A program made the position numbers and the translations under genes. This document shows positions 3,001-51,530 of a DNA stretch of 64,000 bases, one piece after another. The stretch covers positions 1 through 64,000 of IMG/VR virus record IMGVR_UViG_3300018080_000123; one strand, given 5' to 3'. The stretch is from a virus. Position 1 is the first letter of the stretch. Every line of letters begins with the position of its first letter. The notes beneath the pieces were generated by a model. It did not search any database. It was not told where the DNA came from and worked only from the letters and a program-made list of their open reading frames with translations.

Positions 3001-6000
3001 TGTCGCGTAATAGTTGATGCCGCGCCCTTACCTGGATTATAGGCATAAAACCTAGCAAATACCGGGCAAGTAAACGCTACATTATTCGTAGTAGAGTTGA
3101 CAGCGACCCCGTAAAAACTTGCTATAGCAGAAGAATTAGCAATCGTATCTACCCGGATTCCCCGTTGGTTTGTTTCTGTTGTTGAGGTATTTGTTACAAG
3201 TAATACTGCATTAATATTTGGGCTACCATCGCCAATCGCACAGCGCTTAGACCTATCAAAAGTCATAACAGGTGTGCTTAAGCTTACAGAGCCAATACAA
3301 AATTTAAGTTGATCCGAATCTTGAAAATCTTGTCCGATAATCCAACTATTACTCGGTCTACTAAATCTTATAGCAGAATAAGCAGCGCTTGATCCAGCCC
3401 CGCTAATTGATACAACTGCTTTACTATCTGCTGTATTAGAATTATTTACAACATTAAGAAAAACTGTTCCAGCATCTTCAGTTCGAGATACTGTAAAATC
3501 TCCGGCCGTATTAAAATAGCCAGAAAGTTGGGTCGTCTGTTTGAACTCAATATAATCTGGTTTAGATCCATGGGTAGGTCCATACATCCAGATATTTCCA
3601 CCGCTAGCAGATCCCGTTCCAGATGCTATTTTCAAAATACCATCGCTTGATTCACAATAAATAATCGAATCGCCAGTAGAAGACATCCCCAAACGCATCC
3701 AACGCTGGGTGGCTGATCCGCTAAAAATAGCAACTTCATATCCGCCGCCTGCAATACCTAAATAATCAGCACCGGCTCTATAAAGCCCAGTATCTGGATC
3801 AGAAGCAAATGTTATAGACGGGGCCGCAGCCGAACCATTAGGGAACTGCATAGGGCCAGCTAAATAACTTGGATTAGTTGTAGCAAGATAGATACCCCAG
3901 TCTCCTGTAAACGAAAGACTGTCTGTTAAGAGGGCATTATTAACGCCCTGAGTAGGCATCACTCCATAAAAAGCCACATCTCTTGTTATTGTGCTAGCCG
4001 CTCCTTTAGTCTTATTATAACTAGCAAATCCAACTCTAGAAGAACAAGTAAAAGAAGCATCTGCTGTTCCATGCGTGGCTACAAATCCAATAGAAGAAGT
4101 TGTGGCAGCAGAAGTAGCATTGTGTTCGACTCTCACACCTTCTTGGATAACTCCTGAAAGCGGATTGGCTTGACCAATACGAAGAATATTCGATGAGCCG
4201 TAAGTTCCGCCTAACCCAACTGTACCTGCGACTCGAAGCCAATTAGATGTCCCGCCAATATCAATGCTTCCAGCAAAATAACTCGGAGCTGTTCCTTCAG
4301 AATAAATTTGATAATTATTGGCAGCCCCCGATTGAGCTCCAATCCTTAGCCCTGTTTTTGTAGTCCCAGTATTTAATGAACTAGACTCAATACAAATTAA
4401 TGCATAATTAGTAACCGCTAGTGTTCCAGTTCCAACTAGACTTGGAGTCCCGGCATTAATTGACGAACTCCACGAAGATGAATTATTTGTATATGTTACT
4501 CCAACTGGGACTGTATAAGCTATTCCAGCACTGTGAAGCGTTCGATGATTCCCGGTATCCGCAATATCAGTTGTTATGGTTCGATATAGATTAAAACGCC
4601 CTCCACTGCGACTCCCTGCTAAAACTTCATCTGTTCCCCAAAGAGCTCTTGCCTCTAAAGCAGCGTAGTAATGCCCTGCGTCTCCAGATGGCATTACTTT
4701 ATAAACTAAAAGAGCAGCATTATCTTCGTAAAGCGGAACTGTAGTTCCAATTCTTACTGAATCTGCAAAATAACTAGGACTTGTTCCCGAACTATAAAGT
4801 TGCCAATTATTTGTAGCTCCGGTTTGAGCACCAATATAGATACCGTACTTATTTGTACCTGTATCTACCGAATCGTCATTAATGGCAATTTTTCTGTAAT
4901 CAGTATAATCAATTGCCCCGCCCCCAGCGATATTCATAGCCTCAACCCAAATATCACTCAAAATGCCAGAAGCATTTGTTACAGTTTGGCCTGCAGCGAC
5001 CGAAAACGTTTTACCAACATCAATACCGCGAATTGTATTCGTATCGGTGACTGAAGTCGTGATGGTTCTTCCACCCTTAACTTCCAATCCGACTTGACCG
5101 CTGCCAATATTAGAATCTGCAGTTTGTTCAGTTTTAATATCGACGCCATAAGCATGGCCATTCCCACTCCACAAACCGTAAACTTTCAACGGCCACCCAT
5201 CGGTAGCCGCGTCCGGAACAATTCCGATTCCCATTCCATATGGGACATAAACATGGTAATCATTTTGAAGCTTTAAAGCAGTTCCAGCCGATCCTGCATT
5301 ATAAGTCTGAAGTAGCATATGAGAGCTATTATCGGCTCCATCGCGAACAACTTGAATGGCCCCAACATTAACCTCTGCGCCAGGAATGTCGGCATCTTCA
5401 AATGTAAAGTTGATTGATCCGCCAAATCCATCGGCCATATTACCGGAGCATCTCGCTCTAGCTTCAAGAACGCGATAAACTCCAGTCGTCGCCGAACCAA
5501 CCATTTCCGCAAGAAGAGCCATATCGGTTCCACCTTCAACGTGAAGACGCGCGCTGTCGGCCGCTGCAGAGGTATTCCCAATTTTTACATTCTTATTGGC
5601 ATCAATAAGCTTTAGATAGGTTGTATTACCAACATTAACTTCAACCTCGCTCGGCTGCGATCCGTGAGCATCTCCGTATAAACGAAACTGTCCGCCTGCA
5701 GCTGATCCAGTATCTCCCGTAATAACTAATCTTCCGGTACTGATTCCGTGAAAAATAGATACGCTAGATGCGGCTGGCATCCCCGATCCAACCTGAATTG
5801 AATTTCCAATCACCAATGCAGTGCTATCTAGACGCGGAACAGTTAAAGTTCCTTCATCGTCTAAGCGCATCAATTGGGTCCCATCTGGAGAATTCAATGT
5901 AGTCGAATTGGTTTTCCAAATGAAATCTGCAACGGTAGAATTGTTTCCATAATCAGAAATAAAATATACCGAAGCTGTTCCTTCACTAGCAATAGCAAAC

Positions 6001-46032: not shown

Positions 46033-47001
46033 TTATTTATAGTCATACAAATCACCTATTGATGTATCGGTATGGACACACGAAATCGCCTGAGCAAGAA
46101 GTCTAGCTACCGATATAATCTGAATCTTATCAGAGTTTTCGATTCGTTCTTCAAGCTTAATTGTATCGGTTATAATTAATTCTGTTAATGATTCGGACCG
46201 TTCTATTCTATCCATTGTCCATCCGGAAAGTACCGGATGGGTAACTGCTGCCCTTACATCTTCCGCTCCTTTTTCTTTCAACACGTCGGCCGCTAAAAGC
46301 AGCGTTCCGGCCGTATCACACATATCATCAAGAATAAAAATATCTCTTCCCTTCACATCTCCAATAATCTCCATCGTCTCAATTTTATTATGCTCATTCC
46401 GCCTCTTACTCATCACCGCCAAAGGGACACCTAAATGTTTAGCAAATATGTGAGCCCTCCCCGCGCCTCCAGCATCTGGCGAAACAATTGTAAGCTTATC
46501 GTCCCATGAATAGCGCTCTTCAATGTATTGAACAAATAATGGGCCGGCTAAAAGATGATCAACTGGAATGTTGAAGAAACCTTGGATTTGCGGTGAATGA
46601 AGATCAATAGTAATCACTCGATCTGCTCCTGAAACCGTGATCAGATCTGCTACTAATTTAGCTGTGATAGCTGTTCGAGGGGAAGTCTTGCGATCTTGTC
46701 TTGCATACCCGAAGTAAGGAATTACAGCCGTCACTCTACCAGCTGAAGCTCTCTTTAGGGCATCGATTATGATTAGAAGCTCCATTAAGGTTTCATTGGC
46801 AGGCGAGCTAGTGGATTGAACAACGAACACATCCTCTCCTCTCACGCTTTCCTCTACCTTTACAAATAACTCTTTGTCGTCGAAGCGCCTTCCCGACATC
46901 TGGCCCAGAGTAACGCAACGACTAAGCAAAACGCTCAAATCCACAACTACACCGCTAGCAAGACTCATGGAAGCAGTTCCACAGAAAACTTTGATACCCA
47001 T
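46033..47001 (-). CDS. prs: Ribose-phosphate pyrophosphokinase (PRPP synthetase)
   Basis: PYFGYARQDRK, DLHSPQIQGFF, VSPDAGG and DDMCDTAGTL motifs. Confidence 0.95.
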   Translation of the reverse strand: MGIKVFCGTASMSLASGVVVDLSVLLSRCVTLGQMSGRRFDDKELFVKVEESVRGEDVFVVQSTSSPANETLMELLIIIDALKRASAGRVTAVIPYFGYARQDRKTSPRTAITAKLVADLITVSGADRVITIDLHSPQIQGFFNIPVDHLLAGPLFVQYIEERYSWDDKLTIVSPDAGGAGRAHIFAKHLGVPLAVMSKRRNEHNKIETMEIIGDVKGRDIFILDDMCDTAGTLLLAADVLKEKGAEDVRAAVTHPVLSGWTMDRIERSESLTELIITDTIKLEERIENSDKIQIISVARLLAQAISCVHTDTSIGDLYDYK

Positions 47002-47010
47002 TTCTTCTCC

Positions 47011-47835
47011 TCAAAAAATAATACTTGCCGGAGTATCCCAGCTTGTATACATATGTCCATCTTCAGCAAAAATCAAGCTTCGGATATCATTTGTTCTATT
47101 ACAGCTTTGCATACACGTGTCAATATGCATCACCGAAATTCCTTCGTAATCATAGACGCGCCCGCCATGGACCATCTCGCGCACCAAATCAAGACCTGCC
47201 TCATTCATTTGCTCTACATATTTATAATACAAGCTTTGTGGGGCAAATTTTTCAATCCACCCTCTAGTCCCCCAACCTCCCGACATACGTTGAGGACACA
47301 TAATTCGTCGCAACGAGAATTGTCTAACCTTTGTTCGCTTACACTCCTCAATCATTCTTTGAAAAGTATCCTGAGCATTAAGAATGCTCGTTACATTCAT
47401 CGCCACTCTAACTGTTATTCCTTCCTTATCGAGATAGTCAAACAACTTCTCGAACTTCTGAAAGTCATTCATACAATCAAACGAGAAAGCAACAACATTG
47501 AACTTGAGGTCGCTAAACTGCGTAAGAAATTTAACATCATTCTCCTCGAATCGATTCAAGAGACGAAGTCCGTTTGTTTGGACTTCGAGAGGAAAATCGT
47601 TGAACTGAGTGGTAAAATAGAACAAATCATCCCAGTTCATAAAAGGCTCGCCCTTGCCAGTAATCAAAACACACGCCACACCGGCAAGCTTAGCCATCAT
47701 ACGAACCTTACGAATATTTACGCCCATACGATAGATGTTAGGCGTAACTTCTGGAGTCATATTACTTACGCAATATGCACACTTCTTATCACATCCCTTA
47801 TTCGGCAGACAAATCGTCAGACTTTGCGCCTTCAT
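47011..47835 (-). CDS. Radical SAM enzyme
   Basis: CDKKCAYC (CX3CX2C), LITGKGEP and QTNG motifs. Confidence 0.88.
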   Translation of the reverse strand: MKAQSLTICLPNKGCDKKCAYCVSNMTPEVTPNIYRMGVNIRKVRMMAKLAGVACVLITGKGEPFMNWDDLFYFTTQFNDFPLEVQTNGLRLLNRFEENDVKFLTQFSDLKFNVVAFSFDCMNDFQKFEKLFDYLDKEGITVRVAMNVTSILNAQDTFQRMIEECKRTKVRQFSLRRIMCPQRMSGGWGTRGWIEKFAPQSLYYKYVEQMNEAGLDLVREMVHGGRVYDYEGISVMHIDTCMQSCNRTNDIRSLIFAEDGHMYTSWDTPASIIF

Positions 47836-48313
47836 TTTTCTCCTCCTCGATAACAGTATCAGTCAATAGATCAAGCTTAACGATCCGAATCTTATTCATA
47901 TCTTTGGCCCCATATCGCGTATAATCTCTTCCTCCGTCAATCATTGCTTCGTTTGGGCACCCACAAGTGTGATAATGGTGTCGGCAGACGCTATATAATA
48001 CCACATCACACTCCAAACAATGAATAGCATTCTGATAGCGATATTTTTCCATTTCATCTTTATCCATTCCGCCTACAACTAGATGTCCAGGAGCATCCTC
48101 ATCTAGTCCAATAAAAGTGTACGGATACTCCATGAACAAGAGCATGTAATCTTTATGATTCTTCTCACGATTAGGATTCGCATTATGATAAACAGCAACA
48201 GGTCTATCCCAATTACGAACGCTGAATTCATTGATGAAGGTCAAGTCCCCTTCAAACTTCTCATAGACCTTTTTGTGATTAAAACCATACCAGTCTATCT
48301 TCTTAACTTTCAC
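47798..48313 (-). CDS. Conserved phage protein with C-terminal Zn-binding domain
   Basis: CLEC..S..RHHYHTCGC..IDGG.DY motif. Confidence 0.65.
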   Translation of the reverse strand: MKVKKIDWYGFNHKKVYEKFEGDLTFINEFSVRNWDRPVAVYHNANPNREKNHKDYMLLFMEYPYTFIGLDEDAPGHLVVGGMDKDEMEKYRYQNAIHCLECDVVLYSVCRHHYHTCGCPNEAMIDGGRDYTRYGAKDMNKIRIVKLDLLTDTVIEEEKNEGAKSDDLSAE

Positions 48314-48648
48314 CAGCGTTCCTCCTCATATTTGTTAATTTCCTCAAGCTTATATTTCTCCTTCAACCACTCTTCAACCAGCTCTTTGAGAGTAAACAGC
48401 TCGCTAAAGGCCTGGACAATCTTGCGGGCCTTTTCAACAACATCTCTTTGATTATTTTTCAGCTCATTGATCTGTAGCTCAAGGCGTCCAATTTTGGCAT
48501 CTTTATTCTTAACCTGACGCTCGAGTGTGATAAGCTGCTTCTTTACATCTTTTTTAAGCTGGGCTTCAATCTCGGCATATGTTTCGGCCGGAACCGATAC
48601 CTTGACTGTCTTAGCCTTCATTATTCTCCCCCTCCAAGTATCTACCAT
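48310..48648 (-). CDS. Coiled-coil hypothetical protein
   Basis: Likely start at MKAKTVK with GGAGGGGAG RBS. Confidence 0.5.
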   Translation of the reverse strand: MVDTWRGRIMKAKTVKVSVPAETYAEIEAQLKKDVKKQLITLERQVKNKDAKIGRLELQINELKNNQRDVVEKARKIVQAFSELFTLKELVEEWLKEKYKLEEINKYEEERW

Positions 48649-48832
48649 TTAAGGTTTCCTCCTGCTGTAAATCTTGTTCTGCTAATTGAAGAGCAGTTTC
48701 AAGCGCTTCCTCAGCTCGTGCCAAATATTCATCAACAACATCAAGAGGGCGTGCATAATCAACCTCAGCAATAACTTTCAGGTTTTCCTTAATCTTGGCT
48801 ACCCTTTTTTGATACCACTTGAGTTTTTTCAT
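48611..48832 (-). CDS. Hypothetical protein
   Basis: 73 aa with GAGGAGG RBS. Confidence 0.5.
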   Translation of the reverse strand: MKKLKWYQKRVAKIKENLKVIAEVDYARPLDVVDEYLARAEEALETALQLAEQDLQQEETLNGRYLEGENNEG

Positions 48833-48914
48833 TTTTAAGCCCTCCTCGCCGGCCTAATATCTCGAATGGAAAATCTAAATCTATCATACCGACTCTGTGT
48901 TATTGACTTCTCAA

Positions 48915-48987
48915 CTCCGGGGATAGGATTCGAACCTATATATTTCTGATTAACAGTCAGACTCATTGCCAGTTATGATACCCCGGA
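48915..48987 (-). tRNA. tRNA-Asn (GTT), CCA not encoded
   Basis: TCCGGGG/CCCCGGA acceptor stem, TCAT/ATGA D-stem, TCTGA-CTGTTAA-TCAGA anticodon arm, ATAGG-TTCGAAT-CCTAT T-arm, discriminator G. Confidence 0.92.
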
Positions 48988-49411
48988 ATTCAGAAGTCAA
49001 TTCATATTTTTCAGCCCAATTAATCCCCTTTTTTTGATTATTTTTAGGCTTGTTTATTCTCAAAAAAGCTCCATTAGCACTACAAGTTTTAACCGGAATA
49101 ACATAAATATTATCATTCTCTGGACAATATACTGCAAACAAATTGCAGCTATTTTTATAATCCATTTTCTTAGCTCTTTTTCCAGATCCAGAGAAATTAT
49201 AAGTATAAAAATGAATTACTCCTCTTTTTAATCGACCAGTCTTAATCTGAATCTTTAGTAATTTCCCCTCCATATCTGCGATTAGATCATACCTTTGATT
49301 ATCTCCGAATGGAATAGATACAGTTATTCCCAACTCAATAAATCTTGATATAACTTTGGCTTCAGAAATATCGCCAATCTGTTTTGTATTGTTCCTCATA
49401 ATATTAACCAC
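48950..49411 (-). CDS. PD-(D/E)XK homing-type endonuclease (PDDEXK_5 / I-Ssp6803I-like)
   Basis: KQIGDISEAKV, PFGDNQRYDLI, KIQIKT and FAVYCPE motifs; probable start at MRNNTK. Confidence 0.88.
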   Translation of the reverse strand: MVNIMRNNTKQIGDISEAKVISRFIELGITVSIPFGDNQRYDLIADMEGKLLKIQIKTGRLKRGVIHFYTYNFSGSGKRAKKMDYKNSCNLFAVYCPENDNIYVIPVKTCSANGAFLRINKPKNNQKKGINWAEKYELTSEFRGIITGNESDC

Positions 49412-49754
49412 TCGCCAGCACTCTCCTCCTTCTCTTCGTCCACCTCAATGCACTCAATTATACAAATTCCCCCTATGAACATATAACTGAGATCAACATC
49501 CCACGAGTTATCAACGGTCGTCCAATAATCATCTTCGCCGAAACGATATCGATATTTCTTCACACAACCCCATGTCGTTGGTACATCGCTCTCGCATCGA
49601 ATCTTTTTTCCTCACTAACGCCTACGGCGCCTATCTGGAATAAGCTGAATCAAGAATAAAAGACACGCTGCGATTCCTACGCCCATTTTGTCTCCAAAAC
49701 AATACCCGATAATCAAACCGAGAACGATAATTGCGACTCCAGTTGGATTCCAAT

Positions 49755-50033
49755 TCATTTGTTTTCCTCCTCGTATTCAATTCTTGTACACCCAGCATTT
49801 GGCATACCGAAATCCTCCAACGGGCCAAACTCATTTTCCCCGAGCATATATCCTTCATAATACAGTTCTCCGTCATCGTCGAACATCTTGAACTTCCTAC
49901 CGCGGGCAGTTATATGATCGTCATCAAAAGGGCATCCATACGGTCCCGAAATTCCAACTGCGTTACAGTTAGTCTTCAGCGGAGCTTTTGAGTCCGCAAT
50001 ATGATCCTTTGTAATAACCCAACCGTATTCCAT
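49755..50033 (-). CDS. Conserved phage hypothetical protein
   Basis: Start MEYGWVITKD with AGAGGAG RBS; FKMFDDDGELYYEG motif. Confidence 0.6.
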   Translation of the reverse strand: MEYGWVITKDHIADSKAPLKTNCNAVGISGPYGCPFDDDHITARGRKFKMFDDDGELYYEGYMLGENEFGPLEDFGMPNAGCTRIEYEEENK

Positions 50034-50046
50034 CTTTATCTCCTCT

Positions 50047-50235
50047 TTACGCTGCAATTTGCTTTTCTGCAAACCGAGCTGCGTCCGCATAATTGGTAAA
50101 TGTTTTATACTCGCTCTCGATATGTCGATCAACTCTCACATAAAATGTGTGCTCGTTGAGCTTAAGAATCTGGACAAAATGACCGCGGGTGTTCTCGCCT
50201 CTCCAAACCTCTGACTGGTGATAGTTGTTTTTCAT
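50047..50235 (-). CDS. Small hypothetical protein
   Basis: GAGGAGG RBS; downstream of a sigma70-type promoter. Confidence 0.55.
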   Translation of the reverse strand: MKNNYHQSEVWRGENTRGHFVQILKLNEHTFYVRVDRHIESEYKTFTNYADAARFAEKQIAA

Positions 50236-50247
50236 AAATCCTCCTCA

Positions 50248-50604
50248 CTAATCAAGCGTGATCTCATCACGCGTTTTAAGCTGAAAATCCCAACCGCTCA
50301 ACACATACGTGTCCTCTTTCTCAACATCTTCGTTCACCTTGCTCCCGACTCGGTTACCACAAAACAGCGAGGTGAAATCCGATCCAACAATCACACCAGG
50401 CATCTCAACAAAAAAATCAGCCCCTGGTTTTTCCTGATAAACTGGATACCAGCCGGGCTGTACTTCAATGTTCGTGTACCACGCCGCTACCTCATAGTAG
50501 CGTGTAAAGACTGTTTCCTCATTCACGTGAAACCAGCCGATGCGCTTAAACTCAACCTCGACCGAATGACCGTCCCGAATAAGCTTGCGAGTGATTTTTT
50601 CCAT
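50248..50604 (-). CDS. Hypothetical early protein
   Basis: GGGGAGG RBS; first gene after the promoter. Confidence 0.6.
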   Translation of the reverse strand: MEKITRKLIRDGHSVEVEFKRIGWFHVNEETVFTRYYEVAAWYTNIEVQPGWYPVYQEKPGADFFVEMPGVIVGSDFTSLFCGNRVGSKVNEDVEKEDTYVLSGWDFQLKTRDEITLD

Positions 50605-50628
50605 TTGATGTCCTCCCCTCTTTCTTAT

Positions 50629-50657
50629 ATTATAGCTGATTTCGCAGAAAAAGGCAA
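50629..50657 (-). promoter_or_regulatory. Sigma70-type promoter TTGCCT-17-TATAAT
   Basis: -35 at 50652..50657, 17-nt spacer, perfect -10 at 50629..50634. Confidence 0.7.
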
Positions 50658-50668
50658 GGACTTTTTTG

Positions 50669-50872
50669 TCAAGAATGAATATTTTTTGTGCGATCCTCTA
50701 ACACTGTGATTTCATTAGCTAATTCATCTCTACGTTCTTTGAGCTTAGCTTTGAATTGATCTGAGCTCTTATCTAGCTTAGCACAGCGTCTCGGTATATG
50801 ATTGGGATCATTGAAGAATTTACGAGCTCGCTCCAAAGCACTAACTCTACGTTTTTCTTGGTTTTTCTTCAT
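50669..50872 (-). CDS. Small basic hypothetical protein
   Basis: 67 aa with GAGGAGGGAGG RBS. Confidence 0.5.
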   Translation of the reverse strand: MKKNQEKRRVSALERARKFFNDPNHIPRRCAKLDKSSDQFKAKLKERRDELANEITVLEDRTKNIHS

Positions 50873-51026
50873 TTCTCATCTCCCTCCTCATAGGTAATAA
50901 GAACCTTAACTTTACCTTGAAACTCGCCAGGGATATCGGGATTATCATCCCACATCTCGCTAATATCTCTTTCCATATCATAGATATCTTCAAAACCGTA
51001 ATATATTTTCTCAAAGAGAATCTTCT

Positions 51027-51530
51027 TCATGCTGCTTCTCTCCTCATTATCTTAAACCTGAGAAACCATGCTGACGGCGATTCCAATCGACGCTCTACTA
51101 CATAATGATGTTTGAGGATTTCCGCCATATCGCCCCAGCTTATCTTACTCTCAGCTCTTTTCTCTCCTCCATCTTTATTAACTACAGTATATTCCTTTTT
51201 AGCCGGATCATAATCAACGATCAGAAGATAGTGACTATTATCAAGAGGATCGAGTCTATATGACAAAACAATAATCCCGCCTTCTCTAAGATGATTGTTA
51301 ATATCGAGAATCCCAGGCCAATTTTTACGGGTAGTAGTCATGAGCTTAGACATGCTTCTAATGGCGCTAGTAAAATCATTCCAAGAACAACCGTTAGGAT
51401 AGGTGCATTTACAAAGTCTTTGAAAGCGTTTTAGATCTTTATAGGTATACTTAAATCCGGCCCACTTGAGCGCATTAATCAAAGCAACCGGCCCGCAACT
51501 GTAGGTGTCTTTTTGCTTAATATACCTCAT
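51027..51530 (-). CDS. Peptidase C39-like cysteine protease
   Basis: Q..TYSCGPVAL and SHYLLI motifs. Confidence 0.8.
   Translation of the reverse strand: MRYIKQKDTYSCGPVALINALKWAGFKYTYKDLKRFQRLCKCTYPNGCSWNDFTSAIRSMSKLMTTTRKNWPGILDINNHLREGGIIVLSYRLDPLDNSHYLLIVDYDPAKKEYTVVNKDGGEKRAESKISWGDMAEILKHHYVVERRLESPSAWFLRFKIMRREAA

Follow-up and report, generated by a model that had tools for sequence, protein, structure and literature searches.

The homing endonuclease I-Ssp6803I of Synechocystis PCC 6803 is encoded within a self-splicing group I intron of a tRNA-fMet gene and has the anticodon loop as its target. To our knowledge, this intron-borne cyanobacterial enzyme has been the one characterised member of its PD-(D/E)XK family. 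The other system of relevance is the phage homing endonuclease SegB, for which we know of no report of a tRNA overlap or of the replacement of a same-isotype gene. SegB of phage T4 recognises a tRNA T-loop motif and drives the inheritance of neighbouring tRNA genes (PMC2330249), and its homologues are widely associated with phage tRNAs, with no isotype preference (PMC13096335). The I-Ssp6803I family, also referred to as PDDEXK_5, was described in a 2012 review as generally cyanobacterial (PMC3384342), and 80 stand-alone PDDEXK_5 genes have been counted in gut jumbo phages (PMC12880540). Within the literature searched, no paper was found on PDDEXK_5 genes at phage tRNAs.

The DNA analysed here (the window) is a stretch of 64,000 nucleotides, positions 1 to 64,000 of the IMG/VR virus record IMGVR_UViG_3300018080_000123. 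The 113.6-kb record has terminal repeats and contains exactly one tRNA gene and one PDDEXK_5 gene, which are the pair described in this study (Table 1). The nuclease of this pair resembles I-Ssp6803I (PDB 2OST, PF11645) in its family, its small size, its D...QxK motif and in having a tRNA gene as genomic home. Unlike I-Ssp6803I, it is encoded without an intron and is followed by a complete tRNA-Asn, and the resident tRNA, once interrupted, appears to have been replaced, not repaired by splicing. As with SegB of T4 and T6, the gene is an intron-less homing gene among phage tRNA genes that is absent from related phages, and the recognition of a tRNA-gene motif and the carrying along of neighbouring tRNA genes may, by analogy, be shared as well. 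On the other hand, the two differ in their fold (PD-(D/E)XK versus GIY-YIG), and the lineage of the window enzyme, unlike SegB, prefers tRNA-Asn. We consider it likely that a free-standing PDDEXK_5 homing gene travelling with a complete tRNA-Asn replaced, as one block, the resident tRNA-Asn of this phage, and that the run of its reading frame into the tRNA results from the loss of a stop codon.

Table 1. Features of the nuclease and tRNA-Asn locus, in coordinates of the window
Feature	Position	Strand	Remarks
PD-(D/E)XK homing-endonuclease gene (predicted; PDDEXK_5, I-Ssp6803I family)	48950..49399	minus	149 aa from ATG
Read-through tail (E141 to C153 + TAA)	48950..48990	minus	almost wholly encoded by the 5' half of the tRNA
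Spare tRNA-Asn(GUU), complete	48915..48987	minus	Rfam 65.9 bits, four stems fully paired
Conserved 55-aa phage ORF directly upstream of the nuclease	49396..49563	minus	also in L005, within the 91% nucleotide block
Remnant of the resident tRNA-Asn, positions 1-12 (12 nt), TGGCGAGTgGTT	49406..49417	minus	left edge of the replaced block
Apparently replaced block, 764 bp: nuclease, spare tRNA, 73-aa ORF	48642..49405	minus	blastn against L005
73-aa ORF, no assigned function, in the replaced block	48611..48832	minus	L005 has three other small ORFs there

Judged by its sequence, the nuclease belongs to the PDDEXK_5 (I-Ssp6803I) family, in a free-standing setting. The Pfam model (PF11645) matches residues 8-138 of 153 over profile positions 2-137 of 138, with an E value of 1.9e-38 and 132.1 bits (curated cut-off 26.1), and the I-Ssp6803I structure is matched at E 1.8e-10 with retention of the D...QxK active-site motif. 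YD42 and Q55-I-K57 have identical counterparts in 2OST and do not vary among 28 homologues, and all the invariant family residues of this 28-protein alignment (G13, P34, Y41, D42, Q55 and K57) are retained. The core is full-length and without internal stops, and an AlphaFold (AF2) model based on the 28 homologues has a mean pLDDT of 89 and a mixed alpha/beta core. With the nuclease as single query, no close relative was found in IMG/VR; the nearest protein anywhere searched has 50-51% identity, and the locus DNA gave no match to phage GenBank records with megablast or blastn.

Besides the ATG at 49399, the frame offers an alternative GTG start at 49411 (48950..49411, minus strand, 153 aa), but the ATG is the likelier of the two. 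It overlaps, as ATGA, with the TGA stop of the upstream 55-aa ORF, and this suggests that the nuclease is translationally coupled to that ORF within one operon. A promoter and terminator scan of the locus remained at chance level and gave no convincing separate promoter or terminator. The GC content is ~30% over the nuclease ORF and ~42% in the flanks. Rfam searches at E<=1 of positions 47000..51500 detected neither a group I intron nor another RNA family, and the intron models were also without a match in ten related loci; the nuclease gene is not borne by a tRNA group I intron, and the downstream tRNA is uninterrupted. The sequence-only reading had described an intronless member of the I-Ssp6803I family that is AT-richer than its neighbours, and all of this has been borne out.

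The tRNA-Asn(GUU) next to the nuclease, whose linear and standard numbering coincide, is called by ARAGORN one base wider at each end than by Rfam. It has a U10-A25 D-stem (TCAT/ATGA) and a G73 discriminator, and the CCA is not encoded. The D-stem had already been pointed out as unusual in the sequence-only reading, and a T at position 10 is indeed present in only 5% of the 545 phage tRNAs of the loci surveyed below. An exact-pattern search for this tRNA in IMG/VR returned none.

One relative lacking the nuclease is known (locus L005), which was reached via a neighbouring gene with 71% protein identity. In this virus, the 55-aa ORF (3821-3988) runs directly into a GC-rich tRNA-Asn (L005:3979-4052) and uses U8-A9-G10 (TAG) of that tRNA as its stop; with a degenerate pattern of the ORF, the L005 virus was the only one found in IMG/VR. 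The corresponding triplet in the window is TGG (A9-to-G), and the frame of the 55-aa ORF runs six codons further. Two blocks of homology were detected by blastn, window 49601..49406 with L005 3793..3990 at 91% identity and window 48641..48228 with L005 4678..5086 at 78% identity. The first one ends within the resident tRNA, after its position 12 (window 49406, L005 3990), and the L005 counterpart of the 764 bp that follow in the window consists of 687 bp, which hold the remainder of its tRNA-Asn and three small ORFs. The window therefore contains an orphan 12-nt fragment of the resident tRNA and, beside the nuclease, a second tRNA of that isotype, which is complete and divergent in sequence. 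This second tRNA is only 57% identical to the tRNA-Asn of L005 and is therefore a different gene and not a mutated allele; the two differ in all stems, including the anticodon stem (CCTGG versus TCTGA). Considering the break of homology at position 12/13, we conclude that the block of nuclease and spare tRNA appears to have taken the place of the resident tRNA-Asn beyond its position 12. The arrangement in L005 is taken to be the older one because of the stub in the window and the AT-rich, foreign composition of the nuclease. These results agree with the earlier proposal of an intron-less unit of nuclease and tRNA: L005 is without the unit, another tRNA-Asn is in its place, and the break falls inside the tRNA gene.

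The two alleles were also found together in the environment. Contigs of one public run (X1; a sediment metagenome, probably the source sample) were aligned to the locus, and a second contig of this run connects 48627|49406 through 702 other letters, breaking at the same base as L005. This contig is probably the L005 virus itself and so provides no independent second relative. Its depth is 10.6, about one fifth of the 49.1 of the nuclease-bearing contig. Both alleles, with and without the nuclease, are present in one sediment sample and could serve directly as a pair of substrates in cleavage and homing assays. The same run contains a 676-nt contig of low depth (3.2) that matches only the part of the spare tRNA-Asn from the T-arm to the anticodon (window 48924-48970), with 6 differences; it is probably the tRNA-Asn of another organism.

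The alleles differ in the tRNA as well as in the small ORFs downstream, in a comparison that rests on one relative, and the replaced block also holds the 73-aa ORF, whose GC content equals that of the genome. The block may, as this ORF of normal composition would allow, have arisen by ordinary mosaic exchange of a variable region instead of co-conversion of the markers flanking a cut site. For the homing replacement that we prefer, the locus presents sporadic occurrence among relatives and foreign composition (30% versus 42% GC), as are looked for in free-standing homing genes. Two other arrangements were considered and rejected, namely a simple insertion regenerating the tRNA from a carried 5' half, as no tRNA 5'-end repeat flanks the window nuclease, and a split or intron-containing tRNA, as the resident 3' acceptor strand is absent downstream.

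The sequence-only reading had proposed to survey PDDEXK_5 genes for tRNA overlap. For this survey, 77 IMG/VR loci were fetched with a homologue alignment and scanned with ARAGORN, and counts are based on 63 non-redundant intact genes; the locus search used the narrower alignment A3, the wider A2 being too diverse. A tRNA lies <=2 kb away in 53 of the 63 non-redundant viral homologues, mostly on the same strand. Of 42 nuclease genes with a same-strand downstream tRNA, 13 have their stop inside that tRNA and 14 have it 0-10 nt upstream; in 2 the distance is 11-100 nt and in 13 it is larger. The expected start of 13 of the 63 genes lies <=10 nt from, or overlaps, the 3' end of an upstream tRNA. 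Control ORFs of >=60 aa from the same loci (n=164) stop inside a tRNA in 22 cases, at 0-10 nt in 20, at 11-100 nt in 22 and beyond that in 100. Flush contact, i.e., a stop inside the tRNA or <=10 nt from it, is thus found for 27/42 nuclease genes versus 42/164 control ORFs (p 5.7e-6), and the adjacency of nuclease and tRNA is far above chance. Phages in GenBank follow the same pattern: the nuclease ORF overlaps a tRNA-Ile by 7 nt in My1, ends 2 nt before a tRNA-Ser in SelmaRatti and starts 23 nt after a tRNA-Asn in FKP10.

ORFs that end inside tRNAs are, as such, ordinary in phage arrays, and the flushness of the nuclease genes is in part array compactness. The commonest overlap is 10 nt, with the tRNA's own U8-A9-G10 (TAG) as the stop. 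Positions 8-10 read TAG in 45% of the 545 tRNAs of the surveyed loci and any stop triplet in 52%, and run-ins are ordinary for array ORFs because these positions so often read as a stop; tRNAs are built-in terminators for one upstream frame. That ORFs routinely end inside tRNAs in phage arrays matters for annotation and for the question of non-stop messages.

Some of the surveyed nuclease genes have tRNAs for the same amino acid on both sides, i.e., Ile/Ile (L048:1907-2470), Lys/Lys (L037:1917-2460), Ser/Ser (L059:1900-2470) and Asn/Asn (L049:1908-2808). Such pairs are as expected if a cassette adds a second copy beside the resident one.

The tRNA-Asn is preferred by one part of the family. 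It accounts for 14 of the 39 tRNAs in flush contact and for 23 of the other 506 (p 1.6e-8, a rough value as the background includes redundant loci). Of the 15 Asn-linked genes, 14 are united in a group of 34 (SH-aLRT 93) in a maximum-likelihood tree of the 63 proteins, and the Asn label requires 7 changes on the tree versus 13.6 when shuffled (0/500 shuffles as low). The nearest rows to the window enzyme are all Asn-linked (L014, L011, L010, L008 and L007). The tree shows that Asn-linked genes cluster around the window enzyme; its deep branches are weak, so it does not show a single origin. The nuclease of this lineage is positioned either immediately 5' of the tRNA, as in the window, or immediately 3' of it, with the start codon 1-2 nt after the tRNA in L014 and L039.

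In several loci with the nuclease on the 5' side, pieces of another tRNA-Asn upstream of the nuclease were recovered by pairwise alignment, in L042 (positions 1-35) and L027 (positions 4-35), in both cases with 0/500 shuffles scoring as high, and also in L011 (2/500) and, as a 3' piece, in L029 (3/500). A covariance search at E<=5 for truncated tRNAs upstream of the nuclease detected none in ten loci. The remnants in L027 and L042 break after position 35, after "CTGT", and thereby resemble the anticodon-loop target of I-Ssp6803I, which the window break does not. Because the window break at 12/13 does not fit an anticodon-loop target, the loci do not point to one common insertion site.

The sequence-only reading had further noticed that the nuclease frame enters the tRNA-Asn and stops in its anticodon loop. 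This is correct: the overlap is 38 nt, nuclease residues 142-153 (FRGIITGNESDC) correspond to tRNA positions 1-35, and the nuclease TAA (48952..48950) is U36-A37-A38 of the tRNA (T36-A37-A38 in the gene). The 13-residue tail lies past the end of the Pfam core (residue 138) and is not conserved, since most of the 28 aligned proteins end a few residues from 138 and the longer tails are mutually unrelated. In the AF2 model, the pLDDT falls from 67 to 43 along the tail, with no predicted structure. The nuclease of L029 reads ...DYQLTS followed by TGA, five nt before its own tRNA-Asn, and the window nuclease reads ...KYELTS followed by GAA. This comparison is suggestive of a lost stop; we infer the loss, because the two nucleases are only ~41% identical, and no stop-bearing close relative of the window nuclease was found in the collections searched. 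The simplest reading is that a substitution or the deletion of one base removed the natural stop and that the resulting read-through was tolerated.

The codon register of the window frame corresponds to tRNA positions 3-5, 6-8 and so on, and positions 8-10 are passed out of frame. The common register is missed, and therefore no in-frame stop is met until U36-A37-A38. The exact position of the stop is no more than chance, as GUU-AA gives the next stop in this register. The alignment and the structural model point to the anticodon-loop stop as being, most likely, an incidental read-through after loss of the natural stop. This stop does not have the look of a designed feature, given that the core ends at 138, that the stop of homologues as a rule precedes the tRNA or falls on its positions 8-10, that L029 has a TGA and that the pLDDT of the tail is low. 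The sequence-only reading had itself named homologues stopping before the tRNA, with a chance stop loss in the window, as the outcome that would speak against it, and for the anticodon-loop detail this is largely what was found.

A second, independent run-in ending at positions 36-38 was observed at L017:1998-2432, in which a PDDEXK_5 ORF runs ~38-40 nt into a tRNA-Ile(UAU) and has its TAA at these positions. Besides, the C-terminal tails of two metagenomic homologues (P0006 and P0007) resemble translated tRNA when the alignment is inspected by eye, the tail '...GRVAQQVGAV' being similar to a tRNA 5' end and D-arm and '...VELRGLEPLTS' to the antisense of a tRNA 3' end.

Based on these comparisons, we propose the following scheme. 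The enzyme would cut the tRNA-Asn genes of those related phages that lack the nuclease, and repair of the break would copy the nuclease together with its own divergent tRNA-Asn into the cut genome, both by analogy with I-Ssp6803I and SegB (PMC2330249). The block would thereby replace the resident tRNA-Asn from position 13 onward and leave the 12-nt stub. The spare tRNA might escape cutting because none of its stems, the anticodon stem included, is the same as in the resident type. That the nuclease-less tRNA-Asn is the target and that the linked tRNA is resistant is something we infer purely from the analogous systems. The nuclease gene would be translationally coupled (ATGA) to the upstream ORF, and it directly adjoins the spare tRNA, an arrangement shared by many relatives. 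With the stop after ...KYELTS missing, the frame continues 38 nt into the tRNA to the next stop at U36-A37-A38, and the 13-residue tail would most likely be a tolerated, unstructured appendage, as the model suggests. If both products come from a shared transcript, the RNase P 5' cut that releases the tRNA would, by geometry, therefore remove the nuclease stop and leave a message without a stop codon, a mechanical effect for which we claim no adaptive value.

This last step could also be read as an evolved control, in which RNase P strips the stop, the nuclease made from the non-stop message is tmRNA-tagged and degraded, and the dosage is kept low. The removal of the stop necessarily follows from a cut on a shared transcript; the ATGA coupling and the lack of a convincing separate promoter or terminator point to one operon; and the conflict is family-wide, with about a third of the relatives with a downstream tRNA (13/42) stopping inside it as well. 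However, the same overlap is found in 22/164 unrelated ORFs, for which compaction is an explanation without selection, 52% of phage tRNAs offer a stop triplet at positions 8-10, and the 38-nt overlap of the window looks like stop loss. Because unrelated array ORFs show the same overlap, we rate a designed throttle low and regard an evolved control as unlikely. It is likewise doubtful that tRNA maturation throttles toxic selfish nucleases of phage arrays in general. In that case, 5' processing of tRNAs would work systematically against translation termination, and RNase P would give non-stop mRNAs for the third of the nuclease genes, and for many other array ORFs, whose stop lies inside the next tRNA, with the 38-nt overlap of the window as the extreme case.

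Homing genes are expected to decay once they are fixed in a population. The missing natural C-terminal stop might then be the first sign of a decaying nuclease, whose gene is fixed and whose enzyme is inactive, with only the tRNA mattering to the phage. Although the form with the nuclease predominates in the sample (depth 49 versus 10.6), such a state seems quite improbable for a gene with a full-length core without internal stops, with G13, P34, Y41, D42, Q55 and K57 kept, with a confidently predicted fold and with a start well coupled to the upstream ORF. That the nuclease is instead kept for the benefit of the phage, e.g., by amplifying or spreading the tRNA against a host tRNA-targeting defence, as in T6, in which SegB-driven amplification of tRNA-Tyr counters Septu (PMC13096335), is highly improbable, since the window contains no repeat or amplification, no host defence is known and the relative L005 does without the nuclease, even though the phage has no tRNA other than the linked tRNA-Asn, whose D-arm is unusual.

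Together with the locus described here, the 63 surveyed relatives show the family to be mainly free-standing in phage tRNA arrays. In one lineage, which is linked to tRNA-Asn, the breaking of an essential small gene would be offset by a spare copy and not by splicing. The locus would represent intron-less homing in phage tRNA regions, by another nuclease family and with a spare tRNA of the same isotype.

Other RNA genes were observed in or beside the surveyed arrays. Full-length bacterial-type RNase P RNA genes are present at L052:3372-3793 and L016:2935-3267 (175.6 and 155.4 bits, respectively), inside viral tRNA arrays and ~0.5-1 kb downstream of the nuclease genes. A GOLLD RNA (L011:2961-3401, 154 bits) and a tmRNA gene (L029:395-710, 113 bits) were detected beside PDDEXK_5-bearing tRNA arrays on viral contigs.
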